A stretch of DNA of 64,000 bases from Candidatus Vogelbacteria bacterium. Lineage in GTDB: Bacteria; Patescibacteriota; Minisyncoccia; Phycocordibacterales; JACOZG01. Below the pieces are notes generated by a model, which was not told the DNA's origin, did not search any database, and saw nothing but the letters and a program-made list of their open reading frames with translations. Location of the stretch: assembly GCA_043807405.1 (NCBI GenBank), contig JAZDGA010000001.1, positions 25,130-89,129 of the forward strand, given 5' to 3'. A program made the position numbers and the translations under genes. This document shows, piece after piece, positions 42,557 to 56,438 of this stretch. Position 1 is the first letter of the stretch; the number at the start of each line of letters is the position of its first letter.

Positions 42557-43588
42557 TCAGCTCACCGCGTATTTGCCTTCTTTGTTTTTCTTGAAGAATT
42601 TCGGATTCTTGAGATTGACGAGGACGGTGTTCGGTTTGACATAGCGCTCTTTGAGCACGCGGGTCATCACTTCCGGCTCGGTCAAAGGGCCGTGCTTCTT
42701 GATGATATTCTCAATTACTTCGCGAACAATGCCCGGCGTGTAACCCCATTCGGTAAGCGCATAGATGCCCCGACCGACAAGGACGAAGCGTTTATCTTTA
42801 ATCAGTTCGTTGTGGCAAGTCGCCGGATTGGCATGGCGATTGAATCGTGTATTAATCTCTTTCGCCACCTCGGTGAAATGCATCGGCGAACCTTGCTGAC
42901 GAAGCACGAGGAAGGCGTAATCGCGAACTCCGCGCACGCGCACCGACGGCGATTTGGCAAGACCCCATTCGCCAACCGGCGAGACACCTAAGTGTTTAGA
43001 GATCGAGAGCCAACGGCGGGCTTTTTCTTCTGAATCGGCTTCCGTTCCCGCTTCTTTAAGCGCCGTTAATAGGCGAAGGATCATTTCCCGTTCCGAAAGC
43101 AGATCGGTGTCCGATAAACTTTCCACCACCTGCTGAAGTGAAGCGTGGACGCGGTCGGCAAGAGTTTTATCCACCAACCAACGATGATGGAAGTGATCGT
43201 CTTCTTTGAGCCGAGTAAATTCATCGCCCAAAACGAGGAGGAAGTGAAGATTATTCTGCACCGCCAAATTTTTATCTAAATAATTCAAAAACTCGCGCTC
43301 GTGCGCAATTCCGCCGTATTCATTAAGCGCCGTTTCAAGCTCGGCGAAAATTGTTTCCGTCGCGTTGAAAGCCGGCGACTTGCGAATCGCCCGCAAAGAA
43401 AACTCTTCAATCTGCCGAACTCGTTCACGGGTAATACCATACCGTTTGCCAATCGCCTCGAGGGTTTCGCCCTCCCCTTCTTCAAGGCCATAGCGCCGAG
43501 ACATAATATCTTGGGCGCGGGTCGGCAAAATGGCGAGTAGGGCTTTGCCAACCTGTTTGGGCTTGAAACTAATGGTTTCTTTAATCAT
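42557..43588 (-). CDS. DNA-binding protein with an N-terminal sigma-70 region-4-like HTH and a C-terminal HARE-HTH-like domain
   Basis: ETLEAIGKRYGITRERVRQIEEFSLRAIRK (region 4.2 pattern). C-terminal YAFLVLRQQGSPMHFTEVAKEI...FVLVGRGIYALTEWGY. Confidence 0.6.
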   Translation of the reverse strand: MIKETISFKPKQVGKALLAILPTRAQDIMSRRYGLEEGEGETLEAIGKRYGITRERVRQIEEFSLRAIRKSPAFNATETIFAELETALNEYGGIAHEREFLNYLDKNLAVQNNLHFLLVLGDEFTRLKEDDHFHHRWLVDKTLADRVHASLQQVVESLSDTDLLSEREMILRLLTALKEAGTEADSEEKARRWLSISKHLGVSPVGEWGLAKSPSVRVRGVRDYAFLVLRQQGSPMHFTEVAKEINTRFNRHANPATCHNELIKDKRFVLVGRGIYALTEWGYTPGIVREVIENIIKKHGPLTEPEVMTRVLKERYVKPNTVLVNLKNPKFFKKNKEGKYAVS

Positions 43589-43704
43589 ATCTTATATCTA
43601 TCATCTTAGTCGAATGCCGTCAAGCCGTCAAGGGGATGACAAAAAGTTGGGATAAAAAATCCCCACCCAATTGTGTTGGTGAGGATCCAAAATCCGAAAT
43701 TAGT

Positions 43705-43986
43705 TTATCGAGTCGAACATTCCAAATTGGCAAGAAAGTTGAGATTATCGACAACCCTATTGAGGGCCAATCTTTCTGCGCAGGGACCGAGAGGAATTAC
43801 CGATTTCACAATTTGATCCGGAATACTTAAATATCGCAACAATCGAGGTGTTGGGGTCTGACTCGGAGGAGAATCGGCATCACTGACGAGCGCCTGTTTG
43901 ATCGCAAAAACCTTTCCCTTTCCCCCGCGACGCTCTCGCCTGCGCCTCTGCTTCGAGGTTTCTAACTTCTTACCGTTTTCGTTCAT
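43705..43986 (-). CDS. possible small basic protein (93 aa), hypothetical
   Basis: ATG at 43984-43986 after GGGAG...GAGG. Arg/Lys-rich N-terminus. Weak call. Confidence 0.3.
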   Translation of the reverse strand: MNENGKKLETSKQRRRRERRGGKGKVFAIKQALVSDADSPPSQTPTPRLLRYLSIPDQIVKSVIPLGPCAERLALNRVVDNLNFLANLECSTR

Positions 43987-44052
43987 CCTCAATCTCCCAC
44001 TAAAAAAAAAATAAAGACCTGTAACGAACGCCAGTTAGACTATAGCGGATTC

Positions 44053-47000
44053 TTAGTTGTTGTCAATGACAAAATTTATTAGGCGGTTGGGGATAAAAAT
44101 TGTTTTCCGAACGGGCTTGTCCTTAAGCCACATTTTCACCTTCGGCCGACTGATTGCTAATTGCGTTAATTCCTTCTCGCCCAGACCATTCTCGGCTTCA
44201 AAAACATCTCGTGTCTTACCATTAATCTGAACCACGATTTTAACTTTTATCCGCCGGCTGGCGGATTGCACTTTAAGCTCTCTCGGCCACGGCGCAAGAT
44301 GAATTGATTTTTTCTCACCGAGATTTTGCCAGAGTTCATCAGTAATATGAGGAGCAAAAGGCGACAACAGTTTCAAAAATATTTTTATCGTAGCAACGGA
44401 AATGGTTGATTCTTTTTCCAAACTGTTTAGCAAAATCATCAAGCTAGAAATTGCCGTATTAAATTTCATCACTTCGATGTCATCACTGACTTTTTTAATT
44501 GTTTGATTGATTAGAGATTGGAGATTCTCTTCTTGAATTTTATTTTTAGTTTTTAGTTTTACCTGCCCGACGGCAAGGCGGGCACTTTGCACTATCTTCC
44601 AGACTCGTTCCAAGAAGCGACGCGAGCCAACCAGTCCGTCTTCATTCCATGCAATCGCCTGATCGAAAGGTCCCATAAACATCTCGTAAACCCGCAAAGT
44701 GTCGGCGCCGAAACGCCTGACAATGTCATCGGGATTCACCACATTACCCCGCGATTTCGACATTTTCTCGCCATCGTGAGCTAAAATAAAACCGTGGGAG
44801 GTCCGTTTCTGATAGGGTTCTTGGCCGGGGACCAACTTGAGATCGTTCAAAACTTTATGCCAGAAGCGGGAGTAGAGCAAGTGAAGCGTGGTGTGCTCCG
44901 TCCCGCCGTTGTACCAATCAACCGGTAACCACCGGTTTAACTTTTTTTGAATTTTAGAACTTGAAAATTGTTTGGAAATTGATAATTGGGAATTGAGATT
45001 TTCGCTTACGCAGTAAGCGACATAGTACCAGCTTGAGCCCGCCCAATTGGGCATCACATCCGTCTCGCGTCGCGCTGTACCACTGCATTTAGGACACTTA
45101 ACCTTGACCCATTTCTCCACCAAGGCTAATGGCGACTCGCCGTTATCCGTCGGCTGATATTTTTTAACGACCGGCAATTTAACCGGTAAATCTTTTTCCG
45201 GCACCGGCACCCACTCCTGACACTTCTGACAAAAAACTAACGGGATTGGCTCGCCCCAATATCGCTGGCGTGAAAAAACCCAATCGCGGAGTTTGTAAAT
45301 CGTTTGTTTTTCCCCATCAACCAATTTAATTATTTCATCTCGCACTTCTTCACTATTTTTTCCATCAAATTGATCGGAATTAGTAAGAACACCTATCCCT
45401 GTGTAAATCTGCCGATCAATTTTCATGCCATCCAAAATAAGGGGCATCTCACTGTGAGTCATTTTTTCAGAAGTTAATTCAGCAAGAGGTAACCAGACCA
45501 TTTCGTGAATATTTTTTTCTTCTTCAGAAATTTCTTCTTTTTTATCATCTTCGAGATCAAAGAGAATACTGTAGGTGTGAGCGATTCGATTAACATCCTT
45601 ATGCGCGGCAAAAAATTCTGACTGGGCCTCTCCTAAAATTTTTACCAACTTAACTTTTTGATAACCAGTCTCTTCCTTAATTTCTCTTATCGCCGCCAAG
45701 ACGGGATCTTCGCCTTCTTCTACCCCCCCCATCACGAAGGTTGTCCAAGGTTGTTTTTTCCATTTCAAACATAGAAATTTCCCCGTCTTGGGATTTCTCA
45801 CTACGGCAATTATCGCATTACGAAAAACGATTTTTTTACCAGGAACATGAGGATTCCTAGTATCAATCAATCGTGGTATTACGACATTCCGAATCGCCAA
45901 ATTGTGTTTCTGGGCGAAAGCGAGATCGCGTTCATCATGCGCGGGGACTCCCATAATCGCGCCGGTGCCGACATCCCCCATCACATATTCAGCTTCCCAA
46001 ATCGGAATTTTTTCCTGACTAACCGGATTGATCGCATACTCGCCCGTAAAATGATCGGCCGCACCATGCCGAGCGATGAAGGTTGCGCCGAAAATCGTCT
46101 CGGGACGGGTGGTGAAAACTTTAATTGAATCAACCCCTCCCAAACCCTCCCCGAAGGAGAGGGCTTTCAATGTCTCGTTAATTTCTGCCACAACTAACAT
46201 CCCATTCTCAATTACTTTTTCATTTTTGAACCTGATGATCTTAAAACCTTTCTGCTCAAGAAAGCTGGACCTCTCTTGGTCAGATTCTTTTTGGCAATCA
46301 TGAACATCGCCATCAACTTCAACTACCAACTTTTTTTCTAAACAAACAAAATCAACAATAAATTTTCCAATTATATGTTGCCGTCTAAAATGATAATTGG
46401 TTGCATCCCTTCTCAATAATTGCCACAAGAGATCTTCGGCCTTAGTCGAATTCTGCCGCATCTCTTTGGCTTTTTCCTGCAAGGCCTGCCAAGTTTGCGG
46501 ATCAGTGGTTTGGTATCCAAATTCCCCCTCTCCTTCGGGGAGGGGGCTGGGGGAGGGGTTGAAAATCTTGAATTCGATCTCCGCCCCCTCACTTCGCCCA
46601 ATCCAATTCCGCTGTTGCGACTTCACCGACTCGGGATAATTAACCAGATCAAGTTCGCGGTCGAGTCGGTCGGCATATTTGGTGATTGCGAGCATCCATT
46701 GCTCTTTATCTCGCATTTCCACCGCCGTCCCACACCGTTCGCATTTGCCATCGTTTACTTCCTCATTTGCCAAACCAATCTTACAACTCGGACACCAATT
46801 GATCGGCACTTTCGCTTTGTAAGCCAAACCTTTTTTGAAAAATTGCAAGAACATCCACTGCGTCCACTGATAATAATTCGGATCGGTGGTGTTTATTTCG
46901 CGCGACCAGTCGAAGGAGAAGCCGAGCGACTGGAGTTGCTTCCGGTAGCGAGTGGCATTTCTTTTAGTAATTAATTGGGGAGGCAAACCGGTTTTAATTG

Positions 47001-47268
47001 CGTAATTCTCGGTCGGCAAACCGAACGCGTCCCAACCCATCGGATAAAGCACCTCATAACCTTCCGCTCGCCGTTTCCGCGCCACCGCGTCCATCGCCGT
47101 ATAACCCCGGACATGCCCGACATGCACACCTTCGCCCGACGGATACGGAAATTCAACGAGAGCGTAATATTTTTTCTTCCGACTTCTTTCATTCATCCGA
47201 TGAAATTTCTTGGCTTCCCACACCTTCTGCCACTTCGCTTCAATCGCCTTAGGATTATATTTTCTCAT
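44053..47268 (-). CDS. leuS: leucyl-tRNA synthetase carrying two in-frame domain insertions (DUF559 endonuclease-like and Nudix)
   Basis: HIGH (HVGHVRGY), NWIGRSEGAEIEF, editing motifs TTRPET and GTGAIMGVPAHDERD, LRDWVFSRQRYWGEPIP and KMSKS. At 1071 aa it is larger than the ~800-880 aa I recall for bacterial LeuRS. Confidence 0.9.
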   Translation of the reverse strand: MRKYNPKAIEAKWQKVWEAKKFHRMNERSRKKKYYALVEFPYPSGEGVHVGHVRGYTAMDAVARKRRAEGYEVLYPMGWDAFGLPTENYAIKTGLPPQLITKRNATRYRKQLQSLGFSFDWSREINTTDPNYYQWTQWMFLQFFKKGLAYKAKVPINWCPSCKIGLANEEVNDGKCERCGTAVEMRDKEQWMLAITKYADRLDRELDLVNYPESVKSQQRNWIGRSEGAEIEFKIFNPSPSPLPEGEGEFGYQTTDPQTWQALQEKAKEMRQNSTKAEDLLWQLLRRDATNYHFRRQHIIGKFIVDFVCLEKKLVVEVDGDVHDCQKESDQERSSFLEQKGFKIIRFKNEKVIENGMLVVAEINETLKALSFGEGLGGVDSIKVFTTRPETIFGATFIARHGAADHFTGEYAINPVSQEKIPIWEAEYVMGDVGTGAIMGVPAHDERDLAFAQKHNLAIRNVVIPRLIDTRNPHVPGKKIVFRNAIIAVVRNPKTGKFLCLKWKKQPWTTFVMGGVEEGEDPVLAAIREIKEETGYQKVKLVKILGEAQSEFFAAHKDVNRIAHTYSILFDLEDDKKEEISEEEKNIHEMVWLPLAELTSEKMTHSEMPLILDGMKIDRQIYTGIGVLTNSDQFDGKNSEEVRDEIIKLVDGEKQTIYKLRDWVFSRQRYWGEPIPLVFCQKCQEWVPVPEKDLPVKLPVVKKYQPTDNGESPLALVEKWVKVKCPKCSGTARRETDVMPNWAGSSWYYVAYCVSENLNSQLSISKQFSSSKIQKKLNRWLPVDWYNGGTEHTTLHLLYSRFWHKVLNDLKLVPGQEPYQKRTSHGFILAHDGEKMSKSRGNVVNPDDIVRRFGADTLRVYEMFMGPFDQAIAWNEDGLVGSRRFLERVWKIVQSARLAVGQVKLKTKNKIQEENLQSLINQTIKKVSDDIEVMKFNTAISSLMILLNSLEKESTISVATIKIFLKLLSPFAPHITDELWQNLGEKKSIHLAPWPRELKVQSASRRIKVKIVVQINGKTRDVFEAENGLGEKELTQLAISRPKVKMWLKDKPVRKTIFIPNRLINFVIDNN
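45394..45873 (-). other. Nudix hydrolase domain inserted in the CP1 editing domain of LeuRS (aa ~466-625)
   Basis: Perfect Nudix box GGVEEGEDPVLAAIREIKEETGY (aa 514-536, nt 45661-45729), between IRNVVIP and VLTNSDQFDG. Confidence 0.8.
46135..46560 (-). mobile_element. DUF559 (Vsr-like endonuclease) cassette with hairpin terminal inverted repeats, inserted in frame in leuS (aa ~237-378)
   Basis: LLWQLLRRDATNYHFRRQHIIGKFIVDFVCLEKKLVVEVDGDVH...GFKIIRFKNEKV. Bounded by inverted GC-rich repeats at 46134-46164 and 46524-46558. Confidence 0.75.
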
Positions 47269-47308
47269 GAATGAATTTCAGTATAACAGCCAAATCCAAG
47301 GTGTAACA

Positions 47309-47336
47309 TTGACAACATATCTTAAATATGTATAAT
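47309..47336 (+). promoter_or_regulatory. near-consensus sigma70 promoter TTGACA-16-TATAAT
   Basis: cattGACAacatatcttaaatatgTATAATggg, ~135 nt upstream of the ATG at 47472. Confidence 0.6.
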
Positions 47337-47471
47337 GGGCGACAGAATCTGCGGGGCGGTCTGGACCCGACAGAAATGGACTGAAGTGTTCGGCTTGGCC
47401 TGAAACCAAGCGTCAGAACGGGCTACTGGGGCCCCAGCCATTCCTTTTCCAAACCAACGAAGGAGTTTCCT

Positions 47472-48029
47472 ATGGACCTTGTCAAAATGAACAAAGACAG
47501 CACCCTGCCCAATGCCTTACGCCGCGCGTGGATGGACCACACTGGCGACGATCCTCTCCGTTCAAGCCAAATTTCGAGAAGGCTTCTTTGGCTCTTTCTT
47601 GGATCCTTGGTAATGCTTGCAGTGGCATTCTTTTGGTTTGTGTTTGTGCCAACATCATTTCCAAATTCAAGCAACAGTGATTATGGTTATTTAGCAATTC
47701 TGGGAGTGATTGGGGTGATAGTATCTATCGCTCTTGACACAAGAAATGACAAGAATGTCATGAAATTCGCCAGGGCAGTTGCGAGTTTATGCCAGGATAC
47801 CCCCTACGAATACGAAATCAGCGCGCTAGTTCAGTTAAGTTTCTTTGGTGACCTGCGTCCAATCGCCGACCAGAAACTACGCGCCCTCGCCCAAAGGATT
47901 AAAGACCTGCAAGCGCAAGCTCAAGAAACCGAGGCCAATAAAATCCGCCTTGAGGAATTCAAGCCACTTCACCAAAGTTTCTACCAGCTCGGCCTAGCTG
48001 ATGAGACCTGGGATTCTTATTTCCGCTAG
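47472..48029 (+). CDS. hypothetical membrane protein (185 aa)
   Basis: AAGGAG lies 8 nt upstream of the ATG. Two TM helices are followed by a helical C-terminal domain. Confidence 0.55.
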   Translation: MDLVKMNKDSTLPNALRRAWMDHTGDDPLRSSQISRRLLWLFLGSLVMLAVAFFWFVFVPTSFPNSSNSDYGYLAILGVIGVIVSIALDTRNDKNVMKFARAVASLCQDTPYEYEISALVQLSFFGDLRPIADQKLRALAQRIKDLQAQAQETEANKIRLEEFKPLHQSFYQLGLADETWDSYFR

Positions 48030-48053
48030 GAGATGGGAAAGGGTAAGTCTACT

Positions 48054-48089
48054 GACCTGCGATCGCCTCACGGCTTCGCAGGTCTTTTT
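48054..48089 (+). terminator. rho-independent terminator
   Basis: GACCTGCGA-N13-TCGCAGGTC followed by TTTTTAT. Confidence 0.65.
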
Positions 48090-48108
48090 ATATCTTGAAC
48101 TCAATCAC
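48088..48108 (-). repeat. relic duplicate of the last 6 codons plus stop of ychF
   Basis: The minus strand reads GTG ATT GAG TTC AAG ATA TAA (VIEFKI*). The live ychF end is GTT ATC GAG TTT AAG ATA TAA, and all 3 differences are synonymous. Confidence 0.7.
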
Positions 48109-48154
48109 CCGCCTTCGTCCGCCTCTGGCGGACTACGGACGGGCAGGCATCCCC
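48109..48154. repeat. 46-nt GC-rich palindromic element lodged between the two ychF 3'-end copies
   Basis: ccgccttcgtccgcctctggcggactacggacgggcaggcatcccc, with core hairpin TCCGCC-tctg-GGCGGA. A related CCCGCCtctgGCGGG sits at ~39494-39508. Confidence 0.6.
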
Positions 48155-49141
48155 TTATATCTTAAACTCGATAACGTCACCGTCGCAAACCACATAATCC
48201 CGACCTTCGATCCGGAGCAATCCCCGCTCGCGGGCGCTCGCGTATGAACCAACGTCGAGAAGCGTTTGCCAATTGATGACTTCCGCCTTAATGAAGCGTT
48301 CGCGGAAGTCGCCGTGAATCGCCGCGCCGGCTTCGGGTGCCGTCGCTCCCCGCTTCACCGTCCACGCCCGTGTCTCATCCTCGCCGGTGGTGAAAAAAGT
48401 CATCAACCCGAGCAATTTGTAACTCGCCGTAATTAAATCATCTAACCCCGTGCCAAACACCGGATCAATTTCAACGATTTCATTTACTTCGCCCCCCAAT
48501 TTATTTTTAAAATCCGTAACTATATTCTCGGTCGCCGCCGAGATATTGAGCACATAGAGCATCGGTTTGGCGGTCAACAAATGCAAATCTTTCGGCGCTT
48601 CACTCCCCGCCCGCTTCCCCTCTTTTAACTTGGTTTCAATTTCTGCCAATAATTTCTCTTCGGCCACCGCCTCTTTTTTCCCCTGCTTCACTTCTCGCCC
48701 GAGCGACACGCGCCGTTTCGTCACGGTCTCGAGATCCGCCAAACATAATTCTAAATTTATTGTCTCAATATCCGAAAGCGGATCAATTTTATTCGCCACA
48801 TGAACAATGTCCTTATCTGTGAAAACTCGGACCACATGCGCGATCGCGTCAACTTCTCGAATGTGAGATAAAAATTGGTTTCCTAACCCCTCACCTTTCG
48901 AAGCACCGGCGATTAAGCCGGCGATATCCACGAACTCTACCGCCGCCGGCACCGTCTTGATCGATTTCGAAAAAGCCGTGAGCTTGTCCAGACGCGGATC
49001 CGGTACCGCCACCACTCCGACTGACGGATCAATTGTGCAGAACGGATAATTCTCCGCCGGCACGCCCTTCTTCGTCAGCGCATTAAACAGCGTTGACTTC
49101 CCCACATTTGGTAATCCGACGATGCCGATGCTTAAACTCAT
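48155..49141 (-). CDS. ychF: ribosome-binding ATPase YchF
   Basis: GIVGLPNVGKSTLFNALT P-loop, DIAGLIAGASKGEGLGN and a TGS-like C-terminus. Start set at the ATG at 49139-49141 (MSLSIG). Confidence 0.85.
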   Translation of the reverse strand: MSLSIGIVGLPNVGKSTLFNALTKKGVPAENYPFCTIDPSVGVVAVPDPRLDKLTAFSKSIKTVPAAVEFVDIAGLIAGASKGEGLGNQFLSHIREVDAIAHVVRVFTDKDIVHVANKIDPLSDIETINLELCLADLETVTKRRVSLGREVKQGKKEAVAEEKLLAEIETKLKEGKRAGSEAPKDLHLLTAKPMLYVLNISAATENIVTDFKNKLGGEVNEIVEIDPVFGTGLDDLITASYKLLGLMTFFTTGEDETRAWTVKRGATAPEAGAAIHGDFRERFIKAEVINWQTLLDVGSYASARERGLLRIEGRDYVVCDGDVIEFKI

Positions 49142-49193
49142 GTCAAACAATGTAGCAAAAAAACTAATTATGTGATAGTAATGGGGTTGGAGT

Positions 49194-49421
49194 TTGGGAA
49201 AAATAAAGATCTTTTATAAGGAGCAAAAAGTGGATCGCTTTTCAAGAATAACATTGTTTACAATTGGTTTTCTCGTGGTTGTTGGTTGGACCGCAATAAT
49301 TTGTATCGATGGACTACCGATCACTTTGGAGGCTCTTAGCGCGACGGCTTTCCCTGTTATTATGGGACTATTCGTGATCTATGTGAGTATTTTTTATGCT
49401 CGGTCGCCCCAGAAAAAGTGA
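49194..49421 (+). CDS. small membrane protein (75 aa, TTG start), hypothetical
   Basis: ORF track entry with two hydrophobic helices. Confidence 0.4.
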   Translation: MGKIKIFYKEQKVDRFSRITLFTIGFLVVVGWTAIICIDGLPITLEALSATAFPVIMGLFVIYVSIFYARSPQKK

Positions 49422-49433
49422 AGCCATTATCAG

Positions 49434-49452
49434 TCAACACCGAGTGTTGACA
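49434..49452. repeat. palindromic repeat type C (GTCAACAC-cga-GTGTTGAC)
   Basis: Related copies at 24612-24624 and, as a 13-bp inverted repeat, inside uvrA (63453-63490). Confidence 0.55.
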
Positions 49453-49456
49453 CACG

Positions 49457-49494
49457 CGCCACAACCCTCGGGTTTGGCGCCTTTTTATTTTTTA
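49457..49494 (+). terminator. rho-independent terminator between convergent genes
   Basis: GCGCCACAACCC-tc-GGGTTTGGCGC followed by CTTTTTATTTTTT. Confidence 0.65.
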
Positions 49495-49722
49495 CAAAAG
49501 CAACCCCTGCAATTCCGTCGCGTGAGCTTGCATTATTTCCATCGCGGCGGTTTGTTTATCCATTCCCCCTTTTACTTTCGCTTCAATTTCGACAGCAATT
49601 TGTTTGAACAGTTCGGGATTCTTTTTCATCGCGCTAAGCACCATTTCAATCTGCGCCTCGGGCACGCCCTGCGACTTGAGCATCTTCTTGAGCAAGAAAT
49701 CTTGAAACATCGTAGTTTCCAC
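49492..49722 (-). CDS. hypothetical helical protein (76 aa)
   Basis: ORF track entry. No family recognised. Confidence 0.4.
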   Translation of the reverse strand: METTMFQDFLLKKMLKSQGVPEAQIEMVLSAMKKNPELFKQIAVEIEAKVKGGMDKQTAAMEIMQAHATELQGLLL

Positions 49723-49753
49723 GATACCAAATCTGTGCTAATTTAACAACACT

Positions 49754-49827
49754 GGGCCTATAGTATAGCGGTAGAACGGTTCCATGGCATGGAACAGGTC
49801 CGGGTTCGACTCCCGGTAGGTCCACCA
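49754..49827 (+). tRNA. tRNA-Ala (anticodon GGC) with genomically encoded CCA
   Basis: GGGCCTA TA GTAT AGCGGTA GAAC G GTTCC ATGGCAT GGAAC AGGT CCGGG TTCGACT CCCGG TAGGTCC A CCA. The G3:U70 identity pair is present. Confidence 0.85.
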
Positions 49828-49984
49828 CTTCGCCCCGCCAATATGGCGGGGCTTCGCGGTGCGAGCACTTAATAGCTTCAGCGACGAGGTGCGAGCATTC
49901 ATCTTCACCGCGAAGGAAGTGGTGTGACCCCGCAGAGTCCCGCGTAACGCAGTGAAGCGGGACAAAGTGGGGTATAATTATTAA

Positions 49985-50224
49985 ATGTATTATGTTTACA
50001 TTTTAAAAAGTCTTAAAGATAATAGTTACTACACTGGCGTTACAATCAATCTTGAAAAAAGATTAACCGAACACAACTCTGGTTATTCAGCCTATTCTTC
50101 ATCAAAAATACCTTTCGAAATAGTTTGGCATTGCACTTTCCTAGACAGGAGTAAGGCCTACAATTTTGAAAAATATTTAAAATCCAGTTCCGGATTCGCT
50201 TTCCGAAATAAACATCTTATTTAA
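49985..50224 (+). CDS. small GIY-YIG nuclease-family protein (79 aa)
   Basis: MYYVYILKS...YYTGVT...LEKRLTEHNSG, the GIY-YIG/UPF0213-type pattern. Confidence 0.8.
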   Translation: MYYVYILKSLKDNSYYTGVTINLEKRLTEHNSGYSAYSSSKIPFEIVWHCTFLDRSKAYNFEKYLKSSSGFAFRNKHLI

Positions 50225-50316
50225 GAAACGCGGGTAATTCTCTCCACAACATGCTAAAGTAGGGGTCGGTTATTGTTCTTCACAATGGTCTTTTTAATAG
50301 GAAAGTGGGGCGCGGG

Positions 50317-50961
50317 ATGAGCATGATTGTAATGGGGCAGACCATATCTAGATTCCAAAAACAAATCAACAGATTGGAACGACTCGGGATTCCTAGATTG
50401 TTTGGAATCGAGAACGACAATTGGAAATCATGGTTAGCCAAATTTGGAGTGACTGAATCAAGCCTAACCGGCAAGAAATCTTTTATCGGCTTGCCGGTAG
50501 GATTAATTCCAGTCGCTGATCGGTGGATTTTTTGGCAGGGACTTTGCCCTAATCTGGAATTAAATAGCGAGATGATCGAAACAGCGACTAAGCGTCTACA
50601 CCGAGGTAATCTGCCAACTGAAGCTTATGTCGTCAGAGAAGTGTCATTCGACATCTGGAGCGAGACCGCCATGAAAGCTGTCAAAGATTGGCCCCGTCTG
50701 CAAGTAGAATTGTCCGACGCCAAACGCGTTGGTTTGACTAGTGAAGAATTGGCCACTTCTCTGGCTTACGATCCGAATCATCATGATACGATGCTTGCCT
50801 TGGGTTCAGTAGAAGATGACGTGGTTCCTTGCCTCGAGCCCGTCACTAGCCATTGGAAATTGTCGCTCTATCGTTTCAGAGATTTCATCGACGAAAAGGG
50901 CCAATGGGTGTCACCCTTCGGTGGCGCGGGTCGTGTCGTCGCGCCAACCGCGAAACAGTAA
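50317..50961 (+). CDS. hypothetical protein (~214 aa)
   Basis: ORF track entry (the track start at 50305 is GTG; the first ATG is at 50317). A strong terminator follows. Confidence 0.5.
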   Translation: MSMIVMGQTISRFQKQINRLERLGIPRLFGIENDNWKSWLAKFGVTESSLTGKKSFIGLPVGLIPVADRWIFWQGLCPNLELNSEMIETATKRLHRGNLPTEAYVVREVSFDIWSETAMKAVKDWPRLQVELSDAKRVGLTSEELATSLAYDPNHHDTMLALGSVEDDVVPCLEPVTSHWKLSLYRFRDFIDEKGQWVSPFGGAGRVVAPTAKQ

Positions 50962-50967
50962 GTATCA

Positions 50968-51004
50968 GACCTCGCTCCGCCAACCGGCGGACGAGGTCTT
51001 TTTT
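50968..51004 (+). terminator. rho-independent terminator
   Basis: GACCTCGcTCCGCC-aacc-GGCGGACGAGGTC followed by TTTTTT. Confidence 0.7.
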
Positions 51005-51022
51005 ATGTTATGATAAATTCTT

Positions 51023-51613
51023 ATGTTTGATTTGGTCTCATTAGTTGAAGGCGCCGGTTATTTGGGTCTCTTCGCTATCATCTTCGCCGAGTCGGGTATT
51101 TTGCTCGGCTTCTTCTTGCCCGGCGATAGTCTCCTCTTCACCGCTGGCTTTCTCGCTTCACAAGGTTATCTCGCCATCGTCCCACTAATTATTCTCCTCT
51201 TCATTGCGGCGGTCTTGGGTGATGCCGTCGGTTACACTTTTGGGAAAAAGATCGGACCGAAAATATTTTCCCGACCAAAATCATTTTGGTTTAATCCCGC
51301 GCATATCGAAAGAACTAAAACTTTCTTCGAGCGCTACGGCGCGAAAACTATTTTGCTCTCCCGCTTCCTGCCCGCCGTGCGTACCGTCGCGCCGATTATG
51401 GCGGGCATCGGCGGGATGCGCTACCGCGTCTTCGCGATCTACAACGGCATCGGCGCTTTGGCTTGGGCTTGTGGTCTTACTTTACTCGGTTATTTTTTTG
51501 GTCGGACAATTCCGAACGCGGACAAATATCTTGTCCCGATCGTTCTCGCCATTATTATTCTCTCCATCCTCCCCACCATCTGGCAAATTATTAAAGAAAA
51601 GCGTAAAGTGTAG
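51023..51613 (+). CDS. DedA-family (VTT domain) membrane protein
   Basis: GLFAIIFAESGILLGFFLPGDSLLF and SRFLPAVRTVAPIMAG motifs. Confidence 0.8.
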   Translation: MFDLVSLVEGAGYLGLFAIIFAESGILLGFFLPGDSLLFTAGFLASQGYLAIVPLIILLFIAAVLGDAVGYTFGKKIGPKIFSRPKSFWFNPAHIERTKTFFERYGAKTILLSRFLPAVRTVAPIMAGIGGMRYRVFAIYNGIGALAWACGLTLLGYFFGRTIPNADKYLVPIVLAIIILSILPTIWQIIKEKRKV

Positions 51614-51622
51614 GGTGGATTA

Positions 51623-51946
51623 GGGCGGTTAGCCCCTCACTCAGAAATTCCTTGGACGATCGATATGTATTACGTTTATTTACTAAAGAGCCGTAAAAAT
51701 GGTAATCTTTATATCGGGTACTCCAGCGATCTTAAGCGCCGTTTAAGTGAACACAACAACGGGCAGAATCGGTCAACTAAACCGTACGCTCCGTATTCAC
51801 TAGTTTATTACGAAGCATATCGATCGTCCGCTGATGCTAAAGAGCGCGAGTCCCAGTTGAAACGTTTTTCTCAAGCATATACTCAGTTAAAACGCCGAGT
51901 TGATAATAGCATCAGCGAGGAATTTCCTGAGTGAGGGGCGGTTAGC
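51623..51946 (+). mobile_element. GIY-YIG nuclease cassette with ~20-nt terminal inverted repeats, flanked by an 11-nt direct repeat of the tRNA 5' end
   Basis: Direct repeat GGGCGGTTAGC at 51623-51633 and 51936-51946. Inverted repeats cccctcactcagaaattcc (51633-51651) and ggaatttcctgagtgagggg (51919-51938). Confidence 0.65.
51665..51934 (+). CDS. small GIY-YIG nuclease-family protein (89 aa)
   Basis: MYYVYLLKS...LYIGYSSDLKRRLSEHNNG. The last 5 codons (EEFPE*) are encoded by the right inverted repeat. Confidence 0.8.
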   Translation: MYYVYLLKSRKNGNLYIGYSSDLKRRLSEHNNGQNRSTKPYAPYSLVYYEAYRSSADAKERESQLKRFSQAYTQLKRRVDNSISEEFPE

Positions 51947-51956
51947 TCAGTTGGTA

Positions 51957-51995
51957 CCCGCCCGAACAAGCCGAACCTCGTTCGGATCGGGCGGG
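51957..51995 (+). repeat. D-loop hairpin element, copy 1 (CCCGCCCGA...TCGGGCGGG)
   Basis: A 9-bp outer stem plus the inner CCGAAC-ctc-GTTCGG hairpin, inserted directly after D-loop GGTA. Confidence 0.75.
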
Positions 51996-52027
51996 GAGCG
52001 TTCGTACACCCCGTCACAAATCAATAC

Positions 52028-52099
52028 GCACCCTTAGCTCAGTGGTAGAGCGTTCCGTTCACATCGGAAAGGGCGTAGGTTCAATCCCTACAGGGTGCA
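52028..52099 (+). tRNA. tRNA-Val (anticodon CAC), intact, nested inside the interrupted tRNA-Val
   Basis: GCACCCT TA GCTC AGTGGTA GAGC G TTCCG TTCACAT CGGAA AGGGC GTAGG TTCAATC CCTAC AGGGTGC A. Confidence 0.9.
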
Positions 52100-52287
52100 T
52101 GGTAAAATTTATGATGGGGCTTCACACGCGAGAGGTCATAGGTTCGAATCCTATACCGCCCAATGTCAACAGGGAACATGTGGATAAGTGCTTTGGGACA
52201 ATCAAGATAATTTATTGTATAATAAATTTGATATCAACCCGTGTTGGGTGTTTCTAAAAAGGTCAAAATAAGTTCATTAATAAAATT

Positions 52288-52926
52288 ATGGAAAACAACA
52301 AAGTCAATCAAAGTAAGTTAGAAAAATCCAAAGAACTTGCCTTGCATTACATGAAAACACTGGTCGAGGTGGCCAGAGAGTCATTCTTAATTCTTGACCC
52401 TAATTTTCGGGTAATTTCGGCGAACGAGGTTTTTTACAGCAATTTTCGGGTTAAACCCGAGCAAACGGAAAATAGGTTGCTTTATGAATTGGGAAATGGT
52501 CAATGGAATATTTCCGAACTGAAAAAATTATTGGAAAAAATCCTGCCAGAGAAAAAAGTGGTAAAAGATTATAGGGTTACACATATTTTCGAAACAATTG
52601 GGAAAAAAACAATGATGCTCAGCGCAAGACAAATAGACTCGGTGCAATTGATTATCTTGGCCATAGAAGATATCAGTGACAGAAAAAAGCTGGAGGAAAA
52701 ATTAGCCAAGCACATCAGAAAGCAAGAAACCTTAATCGCCGAACGGACAGCAAACCTTGCCGATAAAATTAAGGAGTTGGAATCGGTGAATAAAAGCATG
52801 GTGGGGCGAGAACTAAAAATGGTAGAACTCAAAAAAGAAATCATGACTTTAAAACAACGAATTAAAAATGGGAACAGTGAAAACGGCAATAATAATGGCA
52901 ATCATAAAAATGGTCGATCAAAATGA
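52288..52926 (+). CDS. PAS-domain plus coiled-coil protein
   Basis: PAS-like ESFLILDPNFRVISANEVFYSNF...LYELGNGQW, followed by a heptad-rich C-terminus. Overlaps the kinase gene by 4 nt. Confidence 0.6.
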   Translation: MENNKVNQSKLEKSKELALHYMKTLVEVARESFLILDPNFRVISANEVFYSNFRVKPEQTENRLLYELGNGQWNISELKKLLEKILPEKKVVKDYRVTHIFETIGKKTMMLSARQIDSVQLIILAIEDISDRKKLEEKLAKHIRKQETLIAERTANLADKIKELESVNKSMVGRELKMVELKKEIMTLKQRIKNGNSENGNNNGNHKNGRSK

Positions 52927-54188
52927 AATCCAAAACTTCCTTAGATCTTTATAAATCAATACGAAAACAAGTAGAAAAAGAGCTGGCAGATGAAAAGATC
53001 GCCACTCGAAATGTCCTCGAAGATTTAAGTATTGAAAAATCAAAAGTAGAAATAGCCAAAGCTAAAGAAGAAGCAATTTTACTATCAATTGGTGATGGAC
53101 TTTTGGCCACTGACGAAAAAGGGAATCTCACATTTATAAATAAAGTTGCCGAAAAACTACTCGACCAAAAGAGTGAAAAGGTTATAGGAAAAAATTTTTC
53201 TGAAGTCCTTTCAATGGAAGATGAGAGGGGGGTATCTGTTCTACCAGAAAAACGCCCCATAAATATGGCCCTAGCCGGTGGCACTACTACTACTGCTTCT
53301 ACTACTAGTCTAGTCTACTATTATGTACGGAAAGATAAAACAAAATTTCCGGTAGCCACAACGGTAACCCCCGTTCTTCTCGATGGAAAAATGATCGGGG
53401 CAATTGAAATTTTCCGAGACATCACGCGAGAAAAAGAAATTGACCAAGCTAAAACCGGGTTCATTTCCTTAGCTTCTCATCAATTAAAAACACCAGTGAC
53501 AGCAATTAATTGGCTAACAGAGAGACTTTTGGGCAAGGGGGCTGGGGCTCTGACTCCATTACAAAAGGAATATTTTAATGATATCCGTGCAGCTAGTTTG
53601 CGGATGATTGAACTGGTTAACGCGCTTCTTAACATCTCGCGTATTGAACTCGGCGCGTTTGCTATCCAACCAGTGAAAATGAACATTCACAAAGTGATAA
53701 AAAATGCACTTTACGAGTTGCAGCCATTACTAAATCGGAAACATCTGGTACTTAAGGAAAATTATTCTCCAGAAAATCTAGTTGTTCCGATAGACAAACA
53801 ATTATTTCTTATAATAATCAGCAACCTCGTCTTAAATGCTATTCACTACACACCGGAAAACGGGCAAATACAAGTTACCTGCCAACGGCGGGCAACCGAT
53901 GTTATGATCTCAGTTCAAGACACTGGCTGTGGAATTCCGAAACAACAACAAGACAAATTGTTTACCAAATTCTTTCGAGCCGACAACGCTAGGGAAAAAT
54001 CTCCTGATGGAACGGGACTTGGACTTTATTTGGTTAAATTAATCCTTGATCATTCCGGTGGCTTAATCTGGTTTTCGTCACAAGAAAATCAGGGCTCTGT
54101 TTTCTATATAACCATTCCCCTAGAAGGAATGAGAAAACAAACCGGGACCTTGCCCCTCGTTATACCCCAAATTAAAACTGTGATATGA
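52923..54188 (+). CDS. sensor histidine kinase (PAS-HisKA-HATPase_c), no TM segment evident
   Basis: H-box SHQLKTPVTAINW, an N-box region and the G-box GTGLGLYLVKLILDHSGG. Confidence 0.85.
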   Translation: MKSKTSLDLYKSIRKQVEKELADEKIATRNVLEDLSIEKSKVEIAKAKEEAILLSIGDGLLATDEKGNLTFINKVAEKLLDQKSEKVIGKNFSEVLSMEDERGVSVLPEKRPINMALAGGTTTTASTTSLVYYYVRKDKTKFPVATTVTPVLLDGKMIGAIEIFRDITREKEIDQAKTGFISLASHQLKTPVTAINWLTERLLGKGAGALTPLQKEYFNDIRAASLRMIELVNALLNISRIELGAFAIQPVKMNIHKVIKNALYELQPLLNRKHLVLKENYSPENLVVPIDKQLFLIIISNLVLNAIHYTPENGQIQVTCQRRATDVMISVQDTGCGIPKQQQDKLFTKFFRADNAREKSPDGTGLGLYLVKLILDHSGGLIWFSSQENQGSVFYITIPLEGMRKQTGTLPLVIPQIKTVI

Positions 54189-54196
54189 TATAATAT

Positions 54197-54604
54197 GTGC
54201 ATATGACAAAAAGTAAGGAAACGACAATTCTGATTGTCGAAGATGAAGCAGCCCAACGCAAGCCACTTGCCGACGAATTGCGAGACGAGGGATTCCGTGT
54301 TCTCACGGCCCAAAATGGGCAAGAGGGATTGGAGTTAGCGCTGCGTGAACATCCAGATTTAATTTTGCTCGATATTCTTATGCCAGTTATGGATGGTTTA
54401 ACGATGATGAAAAAAATGCGTGAGACAAATTTGTGGGGCAAACAAGTACCAATAATTCTTTTAACAAATTTGAGCGCTAATGAAGAAAAAATGATGCAAG
54501 CAATTACGAGAGATGAACCGGCGTTTTTTCTTGTAAAATCAGACTGGACATTGCAGGATGTCGTAAGTAAGATAAAAGAGCGACTTGCGCAAAACATAGA
54601 TTAA
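54197..54604 (+). CDS. stand-alone response-regulator receiver protein (CheY-like)
   Basis: ILIVEDE, LILLDILMPVMDG and a conserved K region. No output domain. Confidence 0.85.
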   Translation: MHMTKSKETTILIVEDEAAQRKPLADELRDEGFRVLTAQNGQEGLELALREHPDLILLDILMPVMDGLTMMKKMRETNLWGKQVPIILLTNLSANEEKMMQAITRDEPAFFLVKSDWTLQDVVSKIKERLAQNID

Positions 54605-54609
54605 GATAC

Positions 54610-54684
54610 GCGGGGCATGGTGCCTGCCCGACCATTCGGTCGTTCGGGCGGGTAACGGTAACATTCACGACCCGCCCCGCACCA
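54610..54684 (+). other. 75-nt tRNA-like remnant containing D-loop hairpin copy 2 (54623-54652) and ending in ACCA
   Basis: GCGGGGC...GCCCCGC form a 7-bp acceptor-like stem with an ACCA tail. The interior holds CCTGCCCGA...TCGGGCGGG, and no T-arm or cloverleaf can be drawn. Confidence 0.5.
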
Positions 54685-54691
54685 AGTTCAA

Positions 54692-54762
54692 CGGGATGTA
54701 GTATAGTGGTAGTATGCACGATTCGGGTTCGTGCGGCCCGAGTTCGAATCTCGGCATCCCGA
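54692..54762 (+). tRNA. tRNA-Pro (anticodon CGG)
   Basis: CGGGATG TA GTAT AGTGGTA GTAT G CACGA TTCGGGT TCGTG CGGC CCGAG TTCGAAT CTCGG CATCCCG A. Has the C1:G72 pair typical of bacterial tRNA-Pro. Confidence 0.85.
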
Positions 54763-54911
54763 CAGTAAAACTTTGGTGTGGGGTTCGCAGGTTCGTGAGA
54801 CTCTGGGTTCTCCGCCAGTTGGCGGACCAGTGCCCTGATTGGTAAAATCTGATATAATGAAGATTGTTGTTTGTTATAAATTTGAACCTTGAAAATTGAA
54901 AACGGAGGAAG

Positions 54912-56198
54912 ATGCATATGGGTCAAAATGTTTTAATCGTCGGCGGGGGCGGAAGAGAACATGCCCTAGCGTGGAAACTCGCGCAATCGCCTCGTATCAG
55001 CAATCTCTATATCGCACCGGGAAATGGCGGTACGCGTCAAATTGGTGAAAATATTCCAATTAGTACTACTGACATTCCGAGTCTTGTTAACTTCGCCAAG
55101 GAGAAGCAGGTGGATATGACTGTAGTTGGACCAGACGATCCGCTAGCGCTTGGTATTGTGGATGCTTTTCAAGCTCGAGGACTACGGATATTCGGACCAA
55201 CGCAAGTGGCGACGGAAATTGAATCATCCAAAGCTTTCGCAAAAGATTTGATGACCGAAGAAAATATTCCAACCGCCACCTTCCGTATTTTTTGCAAGCA
55301 CCGCGAAGCACTAGCGTATGTTCGCCAACACGGGACACCGATTGTGGTGAAAGCCGATGGACTTACTCTCGGCAAGGGCGCGTATGTTTGTAAAACATTG
55401 GCGGAAGCAGAAACTGCCCTAGCGGAAATCATGCTTGACCGTATCTACAAAGAGGCAGGAAGGCAAGTAGTTATCGAGGAATTTCTTGATGGCCAAGAAA
55501 TCTCTATCCATACTTTCTGCGACGGAGAAACTTCTATTTTGCTACCGTCTTCTCAAGACCACAAGCCAATACGTGACGGCGACGAAGGTCGGAACACCGG
55601 TGGCATGGGAACGATCGCGCCGGTTCCATGGTTAAGCGTAGAAGCGATGCGAACAATTGACAAACAAATTGTCCGGCCAACTCTTGAAGCCCTCGCGAAC
55701 CGTGGCAGGAAATTCACTGGTTTGCTCTATCCGGGACTCAAGCTGACAAGTAGCGGACCGAGGGTAATTGAGTTCAATGCGCGGTTCGGCGATCCGGAAA
55801 CACAAAGTTATATGCGTCTTCTCAAAACCGACCTGCTCGATATCTTGGAAGCGTGCGTGAACGGGACACTCGCAAAACTAACGATTGAGTGGCACACCGG
55901 CTTCGCCGCATGTGTCGTCATTGCCTCCACCGGTTATCCTGATGTATACAAAAAAGGATTTCCAATCCATGGTGTCACCGAAGCTGAAAATGTTCCGGGG
56001 GTTATCGTTTTCCATGCAGGAACAAGTTTTGATCAGGAGCTCAAAACTGCCGGCGGGCGTGTCCTTGGCGTAACAGCAATCGGTAACACGCTCCGCGATA
56101 CGCTTAACCGAGCCTACGAAGCAGCCCGTTTTATTAAGTTTGAGGGTATGCAGTATCGACACGATATCGGAGCGAAAGCTCTCACCACTGGGTTCTAG
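54912..56198 (+). CDS. purD: phosphoribosylamine-glycine ligase
   Basis: VLIVGGGGREHALAWKL, an ATP-grasp core and EFNARFGDPETQ. Confidence 0.9.
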   Translation: MHMGQNVLIVGGGGREHALAWKLAQSPRISNLYIAPGNGGTRQIGENIPISTTDIPSLVNFAKEKQVDMTVVGPDDPLALGIVDAFQARGLRIFGPTQVATEIESSKAFAKDLMTEENIPTATFRIFCKHREALAYVRQHGTPIVVKADGLTLGKGAYVCKTLAEAETALAEIMLDRIYKEAGRQVVIEEFLDGQEISIHTFCDGETSILLPSSQDHKPIRDGDEGRNTGGMGTIAPVPWLSVEAMRTIDKQIVRPTLEALANRGRKFTGLLYPGLKLTSSGPRVIEFNARFGDPETQSYMRLLKTDLLDILEACVNGTLAKLTIEWHTGFAACVVIASTGYPDVYKKGFPIHGVTEAENVPGVIVFHAGTSFDQELKTAGGRVLGVTAIGNTLRDTLNRAYEAARFIKFEGMQYRHDIGAKALTTGF

Positions 56199-56272: not shown

Positions 56273-56367
56273 GGGCTCATCGTATAGTGGTACCCGCCCG
56301 ACCGAATGACTTCGGTCGTTCGGGCGGGGTACGCGGCATTCGCACCGCGCCCGCCAGACGATCACAA
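56273..56367 (+). pseudogene. 5' half of a tRNA-Ala(CGC)-like gene carrying D-loop hairpin copy 3 (56293-56328); no 3' half found
   Basis: GGGCTCA TC GTAT AGTGGTA [CCCGCCCGA..TCGGGCGGG] GTAC G CGGCA TTCGCAC, after which it diverges. Lies immediately upstream of the intact tRNA-Ala(CGC). Confidence 0.55.
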
Positions 56368-56438
56368 GGGCCTATAGTCTAGTAGTACGACGCGTCATTC
56401 GCATTGACGAGGCGGGGGTGCGATTCCCCCTAGGTCCA
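56368..56438 (+). tRNA. tRNA-Ala (anticodon CGC)
   Basis: GGGCCTA TA GTCT AGTAGTA CGAC G CGTCA TTCGCAT TGACG AGGC GGGGG TGCGATT CCCCC TAGGTCC A. G3:U70 is present. Confidence 0.85.

Follow-up and report, generated by a model that had tools for sequence, protein, structure and literature searches.

The stretch analysed here, a 64,000-nt window of contig JAZDGA010000001.1 assigned to a Candidatus Vogelbacteria bacterium, belongs to an ultra-small bacterium of the Candidate Phyla Radiation (CPR; Paceibacteria) and carries three tRNA genes, for Val(CAC), Pro(CGG) and Ala(CGC), each of which is interrupted twice in the same manner. A palindromic hairpin of a single family lies in the D arm, directly after the motif TGGTR, while a second insertion in the anticodon arm holds a complete tRNA gene with the same anticodon and a divergent sequence. 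We refer to the interrupted gene as the outer tRNA, to the gene nested in it as the inner tRNA, and to the whole arrangement as a composite. The build seen at tRNA-Val recurs at tRNA-Pro (54611-54838) and at tRNA-Ala (56273-56438), i.e. it occurs three times in the window, and a short cassette encoding a GIY-YIG nuclease adjoins the 5' end of the Val composite. The features are collected in Table 1.

Table 1. Features of the composite tRNA genes and of the GIY-YIG cassettes (positions are those of the window unless a related locus, L with a number, is named; ORF, open reading frame)
Feature	Position	Strand	Remarks
Upstream 11-nt copy of the tRNA-Val 5' end (GGGCGGTTAGC), left direct repeat of the GIY-YIG cassette	51623-51633	+	
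Left terminal inverted repeat GCCCCTCACTCAGAAATTCCT of the GIY-YIG cassette	51632-51652	+	
89-aa single-domain GIY-YIG nuclease ORF, UPF0213 type	51665-51934	+	Pfam PF01541, E = 6e-17
Right terminal inverted repeat of the GIY-YIG cassette	51919-51939	+	overlaps the ORF stop codon and the GGGC with which the tRNA begins
Outer (ancestral resident) tRNA-Val(CAC), nt 1-21	51936-51956	+	100% identity to the resident gene of L001
Palindromic insertion of 39 nt after TGGTA, D loop	51957-51995	+	one of the three copies of the hairpin family
Outer tRNA-Val, nt 22-30	51996-52004	+	
Val tRNA cassette, left end with inverted repeat CCCCGTCACAAAT	52005-52027	+	
Inner tRNA-Val(CAC), complete, divergent, presumed working copy	52028-52099	+	ARAGORN; Rfam 71.3 bits
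Val tRNA cassette, right end with inverted repeat ATTTATGATGGGG	52100-52119	+	
Outer tRNA-Val, nt 31-73	52120-52162	+	blastn: outer nt 30-73 (52119-52162) 100% identical to L001
Outer (resident-type) tRNA-Pro(CGG), nt 1-12	54611-54622	+	
30-nt hairpin of the same family after TGGTG, D stem of Pro	54623-54652	+	
Outer tRNA-Pro, nt 13-30	54653-54670	+	
Pro tRNA cassette: left repeat CCCCGCACCAAGTT, inner tRNA-Pro(CGG) (54692-54762), right repeat ACTTTGGTGTGGGG	54671-54783	+	inner gene: Rfam 62.6 bits
Outer tRNA-Pro, 3' part, decayed	54784-54838	+	
Outer (resident-type) tRNA-Ala(CGC), nt 1-20	56273-56292	+	1 mismatch
36-nt hairpin of the same family after TGGTA, D loop of Ala	56293-56328	+	
Outer tRNA-Ala, nt 21-36	56329-56344	+	last nt is anticodon-loop position 37
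Ala left cassette flank CCGCGCCCGCCAGACGATCACAA (56345-56367) and inner tRNA-Ala(CGC) (56368-56438)	56345-56438	+	Rfam 59.1 bits
Second GIY-YIG insertion, directly after the 3' end of tRNA-Ala(GGC); ORF 49985-50224, 79 aa	49828-50247	+	Pfam E = 5e-16
Homologous GIY-YIG cassette before intact tRNA-Val(TAC)	L020-24		duplicated 5' end GGGCGGTTAGC
Homologous GIY-YIG cassette before intact tRNA-Val(GAC)	L026		duplicated 5' end GGGCACTTAGC
Homologous GIY-YIG cassette before intact tRNA-Ala(CGC)	L027		duplicated 5' end GGGCCCGTAG

An earlier note on this DNA, made from its letters, had claimed that 51936-51956, 51996-52005 and 52121-52162 join into a 73-nt tRNA-Val(CAC), that this gene is broken by a 39-nt hairpin after the GGTA of the D loop and by 115 nt between positions 31 and 32, that the longer insert has ends able to pair and contains a complete tRNA-Val(CAC), and that an 89-aa GIY-YIG ORF with inverted repeats of about 20 nt and an 11-nt duplication of the tRNA 5' end lies immediately upstream. 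Nearly all of this was borne out. ARAGORN calls the joined pieces as a 73-nt tRNA-Val(CAC); the hairpin is present, folds with -24.5 kcal/mol (z = -4.2) and has a stem that begins right at both junctions; the nested gene is recognised by ARAGORN as well as by Rfam; the nuclease ORF, its repeats and the duplication are all in place; and the pairing between the two ends of the 115-nt insert reaches 13 positions, a G-T pair and a mismatch included, i.e. further than had been stated. The recurrence of the build at tRNA-Pro and tRNA-Ala had escaped the note. The boundary of the second insertion had to be shifted by one position, because the relatives described below have C, not T, at tRNA position 31. 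The insertion is therefore 52005-52119 and lies between G30 and C31. With this boundary the joined outer gene is identical in 73 of 73 positions to the intact gene of a relative, L001, which scores 73.3 bits with Rfam. As it stands in the genome, interrupted, the outer Val was detected neither by ARAGORN nor by Rfam, both of which reported only the inner tRNA-Val(CAC). The predicted fold of the composite is a cloverleaf within a cloverleaf, in which the inserts form separate stem-loops.

The outer pieces of all three composites match resident genes of relatives, and they are preserved to different degrees. The outer Val is free of point changes. In the 3' part of the outer Pro, CA has been inserted in the anticodon, the GAATC of the T loop has become a small hairpin (TCCGCCAGTTGGCGGA) and the acceptor stem carries a C>T change; removal of the inserts still leaves a 9-nt anticodon loop and no T arm. 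The Ala composite lacks the right cassette flank together with the outer 3' part (nt 37-74), and no outer 3' piece was found anywhere in the window. The decay of the outer Pro and the truncation of the outer Ala argue that the outer Val, Pro and Ala genes are, judged by their sequences, pseudogenes rather than split genes awaiting splicing.

The inner genes present a different picture. Taking as tRNAs all sequences with an RF00005 covariance score above the gathering threshold of 29 bits, the three of them lie at 59-71 bits (Table 1). They are about 75% identical to the outer genes, the anticodon being kept and the differing quarter (~25%) of the sequence including the acceptor stems. When the inner Val is compared with its nearest relative, the resident gene of L006, the acceptor-stem changes are paired, whereas the flanks are unrelated, and the inner Ala is identical to the resident tRNA-Ala(CGC) of L029 (3190-3260). 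The scores, the paired changes and this identity make the inner genes look functional. It seems that they would be the ones expressed.

The ancestral state of the locus can be read from its relatives. L001, a metagenome-assembled genome of Candidatus Paceibacterota found when the 3' part of the outer tRNA was used as a query against species-representative genomes, is syntenic with the window, with 77-87% nucleotide identity over most of 42870-51605. There, a DedA gene is directly followed by an uninterrupted tRNA-Val(CAC), and then by tRNA-Pro(CGG) and tRNA-Ala(CGC). An uninterrupted tRNA-Val that is identical or differs by 1 nt is also found in L008-L018, L028, L029 and L031, whose DedA proteins share 79-93% amino acid identity. 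Together with L001 these loci represent 8 lineages, none of which has the hairpin, the nested tRNA or the GIY-YIG ORF at the locus. The uninterrupted outer gene that the earlier note suggested looking for in related genomes thus exists and, since it is uninterrupted in all 8 lineages checked, the interrupted state is derived. By this comparison the outer Val is the ancestral resident gene.

In L001, L011 and L029 the Val, Pro and Ala tRNAs are adjacent, within about 260-300 nt. In the window the three tRNAs are separated by purD and by genes for a PAS protein, a histidine kinase and a response regulator (52163-54604 and 54912-56198), and in this lineage the former cluster constitutes an insertion hot spot for genes. 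Exact-protein look-ups with the DedA and GIY-YIG proteins of the window retrieved no other contig, and a search for a closer strain by means of the PAS protein encoded downstream of the Val composite gave no homologue of more than 73% identity.

The earlier note had left room for a split tRNA that needs unknown processing. The outer tRNAs would then be functional, either because a novel bacterial processing and ligation removes the inserts or because the fragments work unjoined, as a bacterial counterpart of the archaeal multi-intron and split tRNAs. The outer Val is indeed intact in 73 of 73 positions after removal of its inserts, the inserts fold as self-contained stem-loops, and the Ala insert lies at the canonical intron position 37/38. 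Moreover, a cassette related to the GIY-YIG cassette of the window is situated in an RNase P RNA gene (see below), and CPR rRNA genes also have insertions of this kind (PMC11270868); the RNA in question still has to function. However, no bulge-helix-bulge or relaxed hBH motif was found at the composite junctions, and in Val an asymmetric loop, 4 nt against 9 nt, separates the anticodon stem from that of the cassette. No intron family of either group I or group II matched the window at E <= 1; the inserts measure 30-115 nt and the longer ones consist mostly of tRNA. Besides, the outer Pro and Ala are damaged as described above, all relatives have plain genes, and nothing is needed from the outer gene because each composite holds a full tRNA with the same anticodon. 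We therefore consider functional outer tRNAs very improbable.

Archaeal disrupted tRNA genes include genes with multiple or non-canonical introns, the transposed introns of Thermoproteales and split tRNAs (PMC4390854; PMC10714607). The composites resemble them in that, within one genome, different tRNA genes carry related short stem-loop inserts, and do so at more than one position (D arm, anticodon arm, T loop). In archaea, however, the inserts have bulge-helix-bulge motifs, are spliced by EndA and a ligase, and leave the genes functional, whereas here the host is a bacterium, the motif is missing, the outer genes decay and a full replacement is present.

An assembly artefact, in which reads of two co-occurring strains with different tRNA alleles were joined, is scarcely credible. 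It would account for the composites being present in one assembly only, and several related contigs (L005, L010, L019 and L028) do break inside tRNA-Val. On the other hand, the junctions lie outside the sequence shared by outer and inner genes, in which the longest common word is about 12 nt, and for this reason a chimera formed via shared k-mers was rejected. Furthermore, the three composites share hairpins and repeats of one family that are not tRNA sequence, and the junctions of the GIY-YIG cassette are independently confirmed in L019. The four contigs mentioned are independent metagenome contigs that stop within the outer-type tRNA-Val or at its terminus, which could reflect ordinary repeat-induced breakage or an insertion polymorphism in natural populations.

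The cassette upstream of the Val composite consists of the 89-aa ORF bracketed by an inverted repeat of about 21 nt. It is inserted at tRNA position 10/11 and, as the first 10-11 nt of the gene are duplicated (in the window as the 11-nt direct repeat at 51623-51633 and 51936-51946), the downstream tRNA remains whole. The closest solved structures to the encoded protein are 1zg2 and 1ywl, both of UPF0213 proteins of 96-107 aa, while the match to the NCBIfam model of group I intron endonucleases covers no more than the first ~35 residues and falls far short of the model's cutoff. The cassette is missing from the 8 lineages listed above and present in the window and in L019. Its two copies are 95.5% identical in nucleotide sequence, as opposed to ~80% for the adjacent DedA genes. 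Presence or absence at a fixed site, together with a similarity above that of the flanking DNA, is what would be expected for a selfish cassette.

Homologues of the cassette occur elsewhere, with 67-80% amino acid identity, before intact tRNAs of other types (Table 1). In L019, L020-24, L026 and L027 the duplicated sequence is in each case the local tRNA's own first 10-11 nt. The core of the inverted repeat, CCCCTCAC/GTGAGGGG, is conserved in the tRNA-associated homologous cassettes and its inner part co-varies. In L019 the D loop of tRNA-Val carries no hairpin despite the same cassette upstream. Because this copy precedes a tRNA-Val free of the hairpin and related cassettes precede intact tRNAs, the GIY-YIG cassette is a mobile unit in its own right, separate from the interruption of the tRNA, to which the earlier note had assigned it.

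A further homologous cassette, in L025 (1460-2208, Logan SRR22808039), interrupts the P3 hairpin of an RNase P RNA gene and has the variant core CCCCGCAC. The 5' strands of P1 and P2 lie upstream, and the P3 stem is made up of the repeats CCCCGCACC/GGTGCGGGG, with the ORF in the P3 loop. An ORF-containing insert of ~290 nt in the gene of an essential ribozyme raises the question whether the RNA tolerates it or is cleaved. Two other features possibly represent cassette relics: a reverse-complement "tRNA 5' end plus left repeat" sequence (GTGAGGGGCTACGGGCCC) at about 1318-1336 of L027, ~100 nt from tRNA-Ala(TGC), and, at about 1243-1280 of L026 just before the cassette, an ORF-less hairpin (GAAAAGGTGT...ACACCTTTTC); the direct repeat in L026 is 16 nt long.

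The second GIY-YIG protein of the window (Table 1) shares 36% identity with the first and is missing from L001. Its leader of ~150 nt is dense with GC-rich hairpins, e.g. GCCCCGCCAATATGGCGGGGC, an architecture unlike that of the first cassette. Both proteins, of 89 and 79 aa, are single domains that lack the separate DNA-binding domain of I-TevI and SegB. The latter, of phage T4, is a free-standing GIY-YIG homing endonuclease encoded in a tRNA gene cluster (PMC2330249). As with SegB, we see a GIY-YIG gene among tRNA genes that is present in some relatives and absent from others. However, SegB is a multi-domain, sequence-specific enzyme, whereas the protein of the window is a bare catalytic domain of 89 aa and UPF0213 type, and the cassette differs also in its terminal inverted repeats and in the duplication of 10-11 nt of the tRNA 5' end. 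We know of no Seg enzyme with a replacement tRNA gene nested in its target.

The hairpins of the D arm belong to one family, CCCGCCCGA...TCGGGCGGG, which is ORF-less, 30-39 nt long and placed after TGGTR. The arms are invariant (CCYGCCCGA...TCGGGCGGG) and the loops vary by indels. Exactly three copies exist in the window, all of them in the three outer tRNA genes, for which reason a genome-wide repeat of the repetitive extragenic palindrome (REP) type was rejected for the window. TGGTA alone was likewise rejected as the target, given that tRNA-Thr, tRNA-Ala(TGC), the inner Val and the inner Pro contain it and have no hairpin. Scans of viral contigs with the inner tRNA and the hairpin as queries returned nothing, or one chance match in a coding region. 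We infer that the D-arm hairpins are cargo-less relatives of the cassettes, with a somewhat different repeat.

A link between the tRNA insertions and the GIY-YIG cassettes is suggested by their ends. The whole window was scanned for inverted repeats of at least 11 positions, starting with CCCC and ending with GGGG, within 700 nt. Only 9 such pairs exist in the 64 kb, and they include those of the GIY-YIG cassette and of the Val and Pro tRNA cassettes, the latter two with inverted repeats of 13-14 positions. The core of the Val cassette (CCCCGTCAC) agrees with that of the GIY-YIG cassette, and the Pro cassette has CCCCGCACC, the very repeat of the L025 GIY-YIG cassette. What tRNA and GIY-YIG cassettes have in common is the core only, of ~8-9 nt, CCCC(G)TCAC or the Pro-type repeat. 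The flanks of the three tRNA cassettes are homologous to one another, and those of the corresponding tRNA types in L006 and L029 are unrelated to them. On this ground the possibility that the 115-nt insert is an ordinary tRNA locus copied together with its surroundings was rejected. Because repeat cores are shared, CCCC...GGGG pairs are rare and the flanks are homologous, we infer that the nested tRNAs are the cargo of an inverted-repeat cassette in which a tRNA may have taken the place of the nuclease ORF.

Two further resemblances are too short to interpret. The left flank of the Val cassette resembles the Val-Pro spacer of L011 (CACCCGTCACA), and its right flank resembles the sequence after the outer Pro (TGGTAAAAT).

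As for the source of the inner genes, the inner Val type is an ordinary resident tRNA-Val(CAC) in the Val-Pro-Ala cluster of another groundwater CPR lineage (L006/L007). L029, a close relative of the window lineage, has outer-type Val and Pro genes, the Ala gene identical to the inner one, and no remnant of an outer Ala; its Ala gene looks like the end state of a completed replacement. It is plausible to arrange the observed states in a series: intact genes in the relatives, a fresh composite at Val, a decayed one at Pro, a truncated one at Ala, and a clean replacement at the Ala of L029.

These observations could also be explained by passive capture. Double-strand breaks in resident tRNA genes, made perhaps by a nuclease that cuts such genes, would have been repaired by illegitimate or microhomology-mediated capture of foreign DNA that had been acquired from related CPR cells and by chance contained homologous tRNAs, and the hairpins would be unrelated filler or REP-like sequences persisting in dead genes. 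The inner tRNA types are resident in other CPR lineages, and the tRNA cluster is a hot spot into which genes of other kinds have entered. Yet all three independent captures would have had to be cognate, to affect the anticodon arm and to be accompanied by a D-arm hairpin of one family, and the flanks of the inner tRNAs, mutually homologous and provided with the GIY-type repeat core, are unlike those in L006 and L029. We consider passive capture unlikely.

The explanation that we prefer, and regard as reasonably probable, is that small inverted-repeat elements invaded the ancestral Val-Pro-Ala cluster, and that their cassettes colonise structured-RNA genes, those carrying a tRNA compensating for the gene they destroy. 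Such elements would insert into stem-loop regions of structured-RNA genes and would be of three kinds: the autonomous-looking GIY-YIG cassette, ORF-less hairpins, and tRNA-carrying cassettes of the anticodon arm. The tRNA cassettes and hairpins would probably be mobilised, likely in trans, by a structure-specific nuclease of the GIY-YIG type. The interrupted outer genes would be dead and would subsequently decay. Transcription of the composite would start at the resident promoter, after which ordinary RNase P and 3'-end processing enzymes would cut out the inner tRNA, which would take over decoding. With time the outer remnants would be lost, and the tRNA gene would end up replaced by a foreign allele. 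No internal promoter-like site was predicted within the cassettes when the Val region and the Pro-Ala region were scanned, a result that is not decisive; it follows that production from the resident promoter with normal end processing would be the simplest way of making the inner tRNAs. The pairing of cognate genes would require no special targeting, because only insertions into a gene that the cargo can replace would be viable. The cargo itself may have originated when a tRNA gene came to be flanked by cassettes on both sides; of the two GIY-YIG cassettes in the window, one is placed at the 5' end of a tRNA and the other immediately follows the 3' end of a tRNA.

This account corresponds to the other reading in the earlier note, in which a selfish element breaks a resident tRNA and at the same time supplies an isoacceptor to replace it. 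Of the two readings in the note it has the better support, from the ancestral outer gene, the recurrence of the build and the shared repeats, except that the GIY-YIG cassette has to be taken out of the interruption as an independent element.

Several observations weigh against our explanation. The composites are seen in one genome only; no second genome with a nested tRNA was found among the related loci compared, and 129 kb of these loci contain no copy of the hairpin family or of the tRNA cassette. No target-site duplication surrounds the hairpins or the tRNA cassettes, unlike the 10-11 nt of the GIY-YIG cassette, and the insertion points in the anticodon arm are unequal (30/31 in Val, 31/32 in Pro and 37/38 in Ala). 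The single genome, the varying insertion points and the missing duplication count at the same time in favour of passive capture. In addition, the hairpin repeat is unlike the repeat of the GIY-YIG cassette, and therefore the local nuclease may not serve the hairpins, and the 89-aa nuclease domain has no obvious means of joining DNA. Finally, the outer Val, being without point mutation, fits a recent insertion, which by itself would not prove that the gene is dead.

A replacement that benefits the host could be invoked as well. A nuclease specific for the resident tRNAs or for their genes, such as a toxin, a phage factor or a homing endonuclease, might have attacked them; the nested tRNAs would have been selected as resistant alleles, with the insertions inactivating the sensitive copies. 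In all three composites the anticodon is kept while about 25% of the sequence, acceptor stems included, is changed; GIY-YIG nucleases adjoin tRNA genes here; and cleavage of tRNA gene regions by a GIY-YIG enzyme has a precedent in T4 SegB (PMC2330249). Nevertheless, no genes for toxins or immunity were seen beside the composites, and this scenario leaves unexplained why the replacements sit within the old genes or carry inverted repeats of the cassette type. We find it quite improbable as an alternative mechanism; it is compatible with invasion by inverted-repeat elements as a selective add-on to it.

Several known systems invite comparison. Short palindromic insertions within genes are exemplified by the Rickettsia palindromic elements and by the intervening sequences of 23S rRNA. 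Similarly to palindromic elements and miniature inverted-repeat transposable elements, the insertions described here are short, palindromic and tolerated in genes, and autonomous and ORF-less versions share their ends. However, we know of no miniature inverted-repeat or palindromic element that carries a tRNA gene substituting for the interrupted host gene. Integrative elements (phages with tyrosine integrases, islands and pNOB8-type plasmids) enter tRNA genes and rebuild them with a partial copy that they carry; an archaeal example of an integrative element in a tRNA gene has been described (PMC3293823). Both they and the elements of the window combine insertion into a tRNA gene with carried sequence that would keep the tRNA working, provided in the GIY-YIG cassette by nt 1-11 and in the tRNA cassette by a whole gene. 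On the other hand, the element is only ~115 nt long, no integrase adjoins the composites, and no att-type direct repeat of the tRNA 3' part was found, the only repeated fragment of an outer tRNA being the 11-nt 5' copy. Besides, the carried copy is complete, divergent and located inside the old gene, and it is not a fused restoration.

The rRNA genes of CPR bacteria contain insertions that belong to neither the group I nor the group II introns, some of them with GIY-YIG ORFs, as well as short insertions of uncharacterised type situated at the top or the base of a stem-loop (Tsurumaki et al. 2024, PMC11270868). The parallels with the window comprise the same clade, structured-RNA targets, stem-loop sites, GIY-YIG ORFs and short ORF-less insertions alongside. 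The difference is that in the rRNA and RNase P RNA genes the host RNA must tolerate its insert, whereas here the host tRNA would be killed and a substitute gene provided as cargo. In the literature searched we found no report of insertions of this type in tRNA genes, and PMC11270868 does not mention tRNA; neither did we find in the literature a description of nested or palindrome-interrupted tRNA genes in bacteria or in CPR. The arrangement is thus not covered by any described system that we found and, by analogy, the closest in logic would be selfish elements that compensate for the damage to their target.

Other inserted sequences were noticed outside the tRNA genes. The leucyl-tRNA synthetase gene (44053-47268, minus strand) contains, in frame, a DUF559 (Vsr-like endonuclease) domain at aa 263-367 (46149-46540 of the window), bracketed by a 16-nt inverted repeat, CCCCGAAGGAGAGGGC and its complement, which makes it an inverted-repeat nuclease cassette in a protein gene; the synthetase of L008 also has a DUF559 domain. 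An intergenic ORF-less hairpin at 41770-41835 (CCCCGAAGGAGAGGG...CCTTCCCCTTCGGGG) has the same repeat and looks like a cargo-less copy of this DUF559 cassette family. The same synthetase has a NUDIX hydrolase domain inserted at aa 482-604 (45340-45892), some 550 nt that are absent from the synthetase gene of L001. In L019 a separate NUDIX gene of 334 aa lies between DedA and the GIY-YIG cassette.

In a wider and much more tentative view, which we think has a limited chance of being correct, the CCCC...GGGG cassettes might be one CPR mobile family residing in the hairpin loops of tRNA, RNase P RNA and rRNA and moved by single-domain, UPF0213/Slx1-like GIY-YIG nucleases that recognise the structure of DNA and not its sequence. 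The members with a tRNA as cargo would then act as a gene-replacement drive, killing the resident gene and putting a foreign allele in its place, and, if this is true, they would constitute a previously unrecognised route of horizontal tRNA gene turnover.

To our knowledge, the only interruptions recognised in bacterial tRNA genes are those by group I introns and those by integrases, which restore the gene. The window offers three parallel cases in which the insertion carries a whole substitute gene. Since tRNA finders report only the inner genes, the pseudogene shells around them are invisible to standard annotation. If the cassettes are mobile, they would represent a new selfish element with a built-in rescue, akin in its logic to self-splicing introns and to target-restoring integrases. 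They would also provide a concrete mechanism for the exchange of tRNA genes between lineages, the tRNA-Ala(CGC) of L029 being the very allele nested here. Small GIY-YIG proteins of the UPF0213 type are very common, and mobility of the cassettes would give them a first biological context and would link the insertions in CPR rRNA genes to a definable family of elements.

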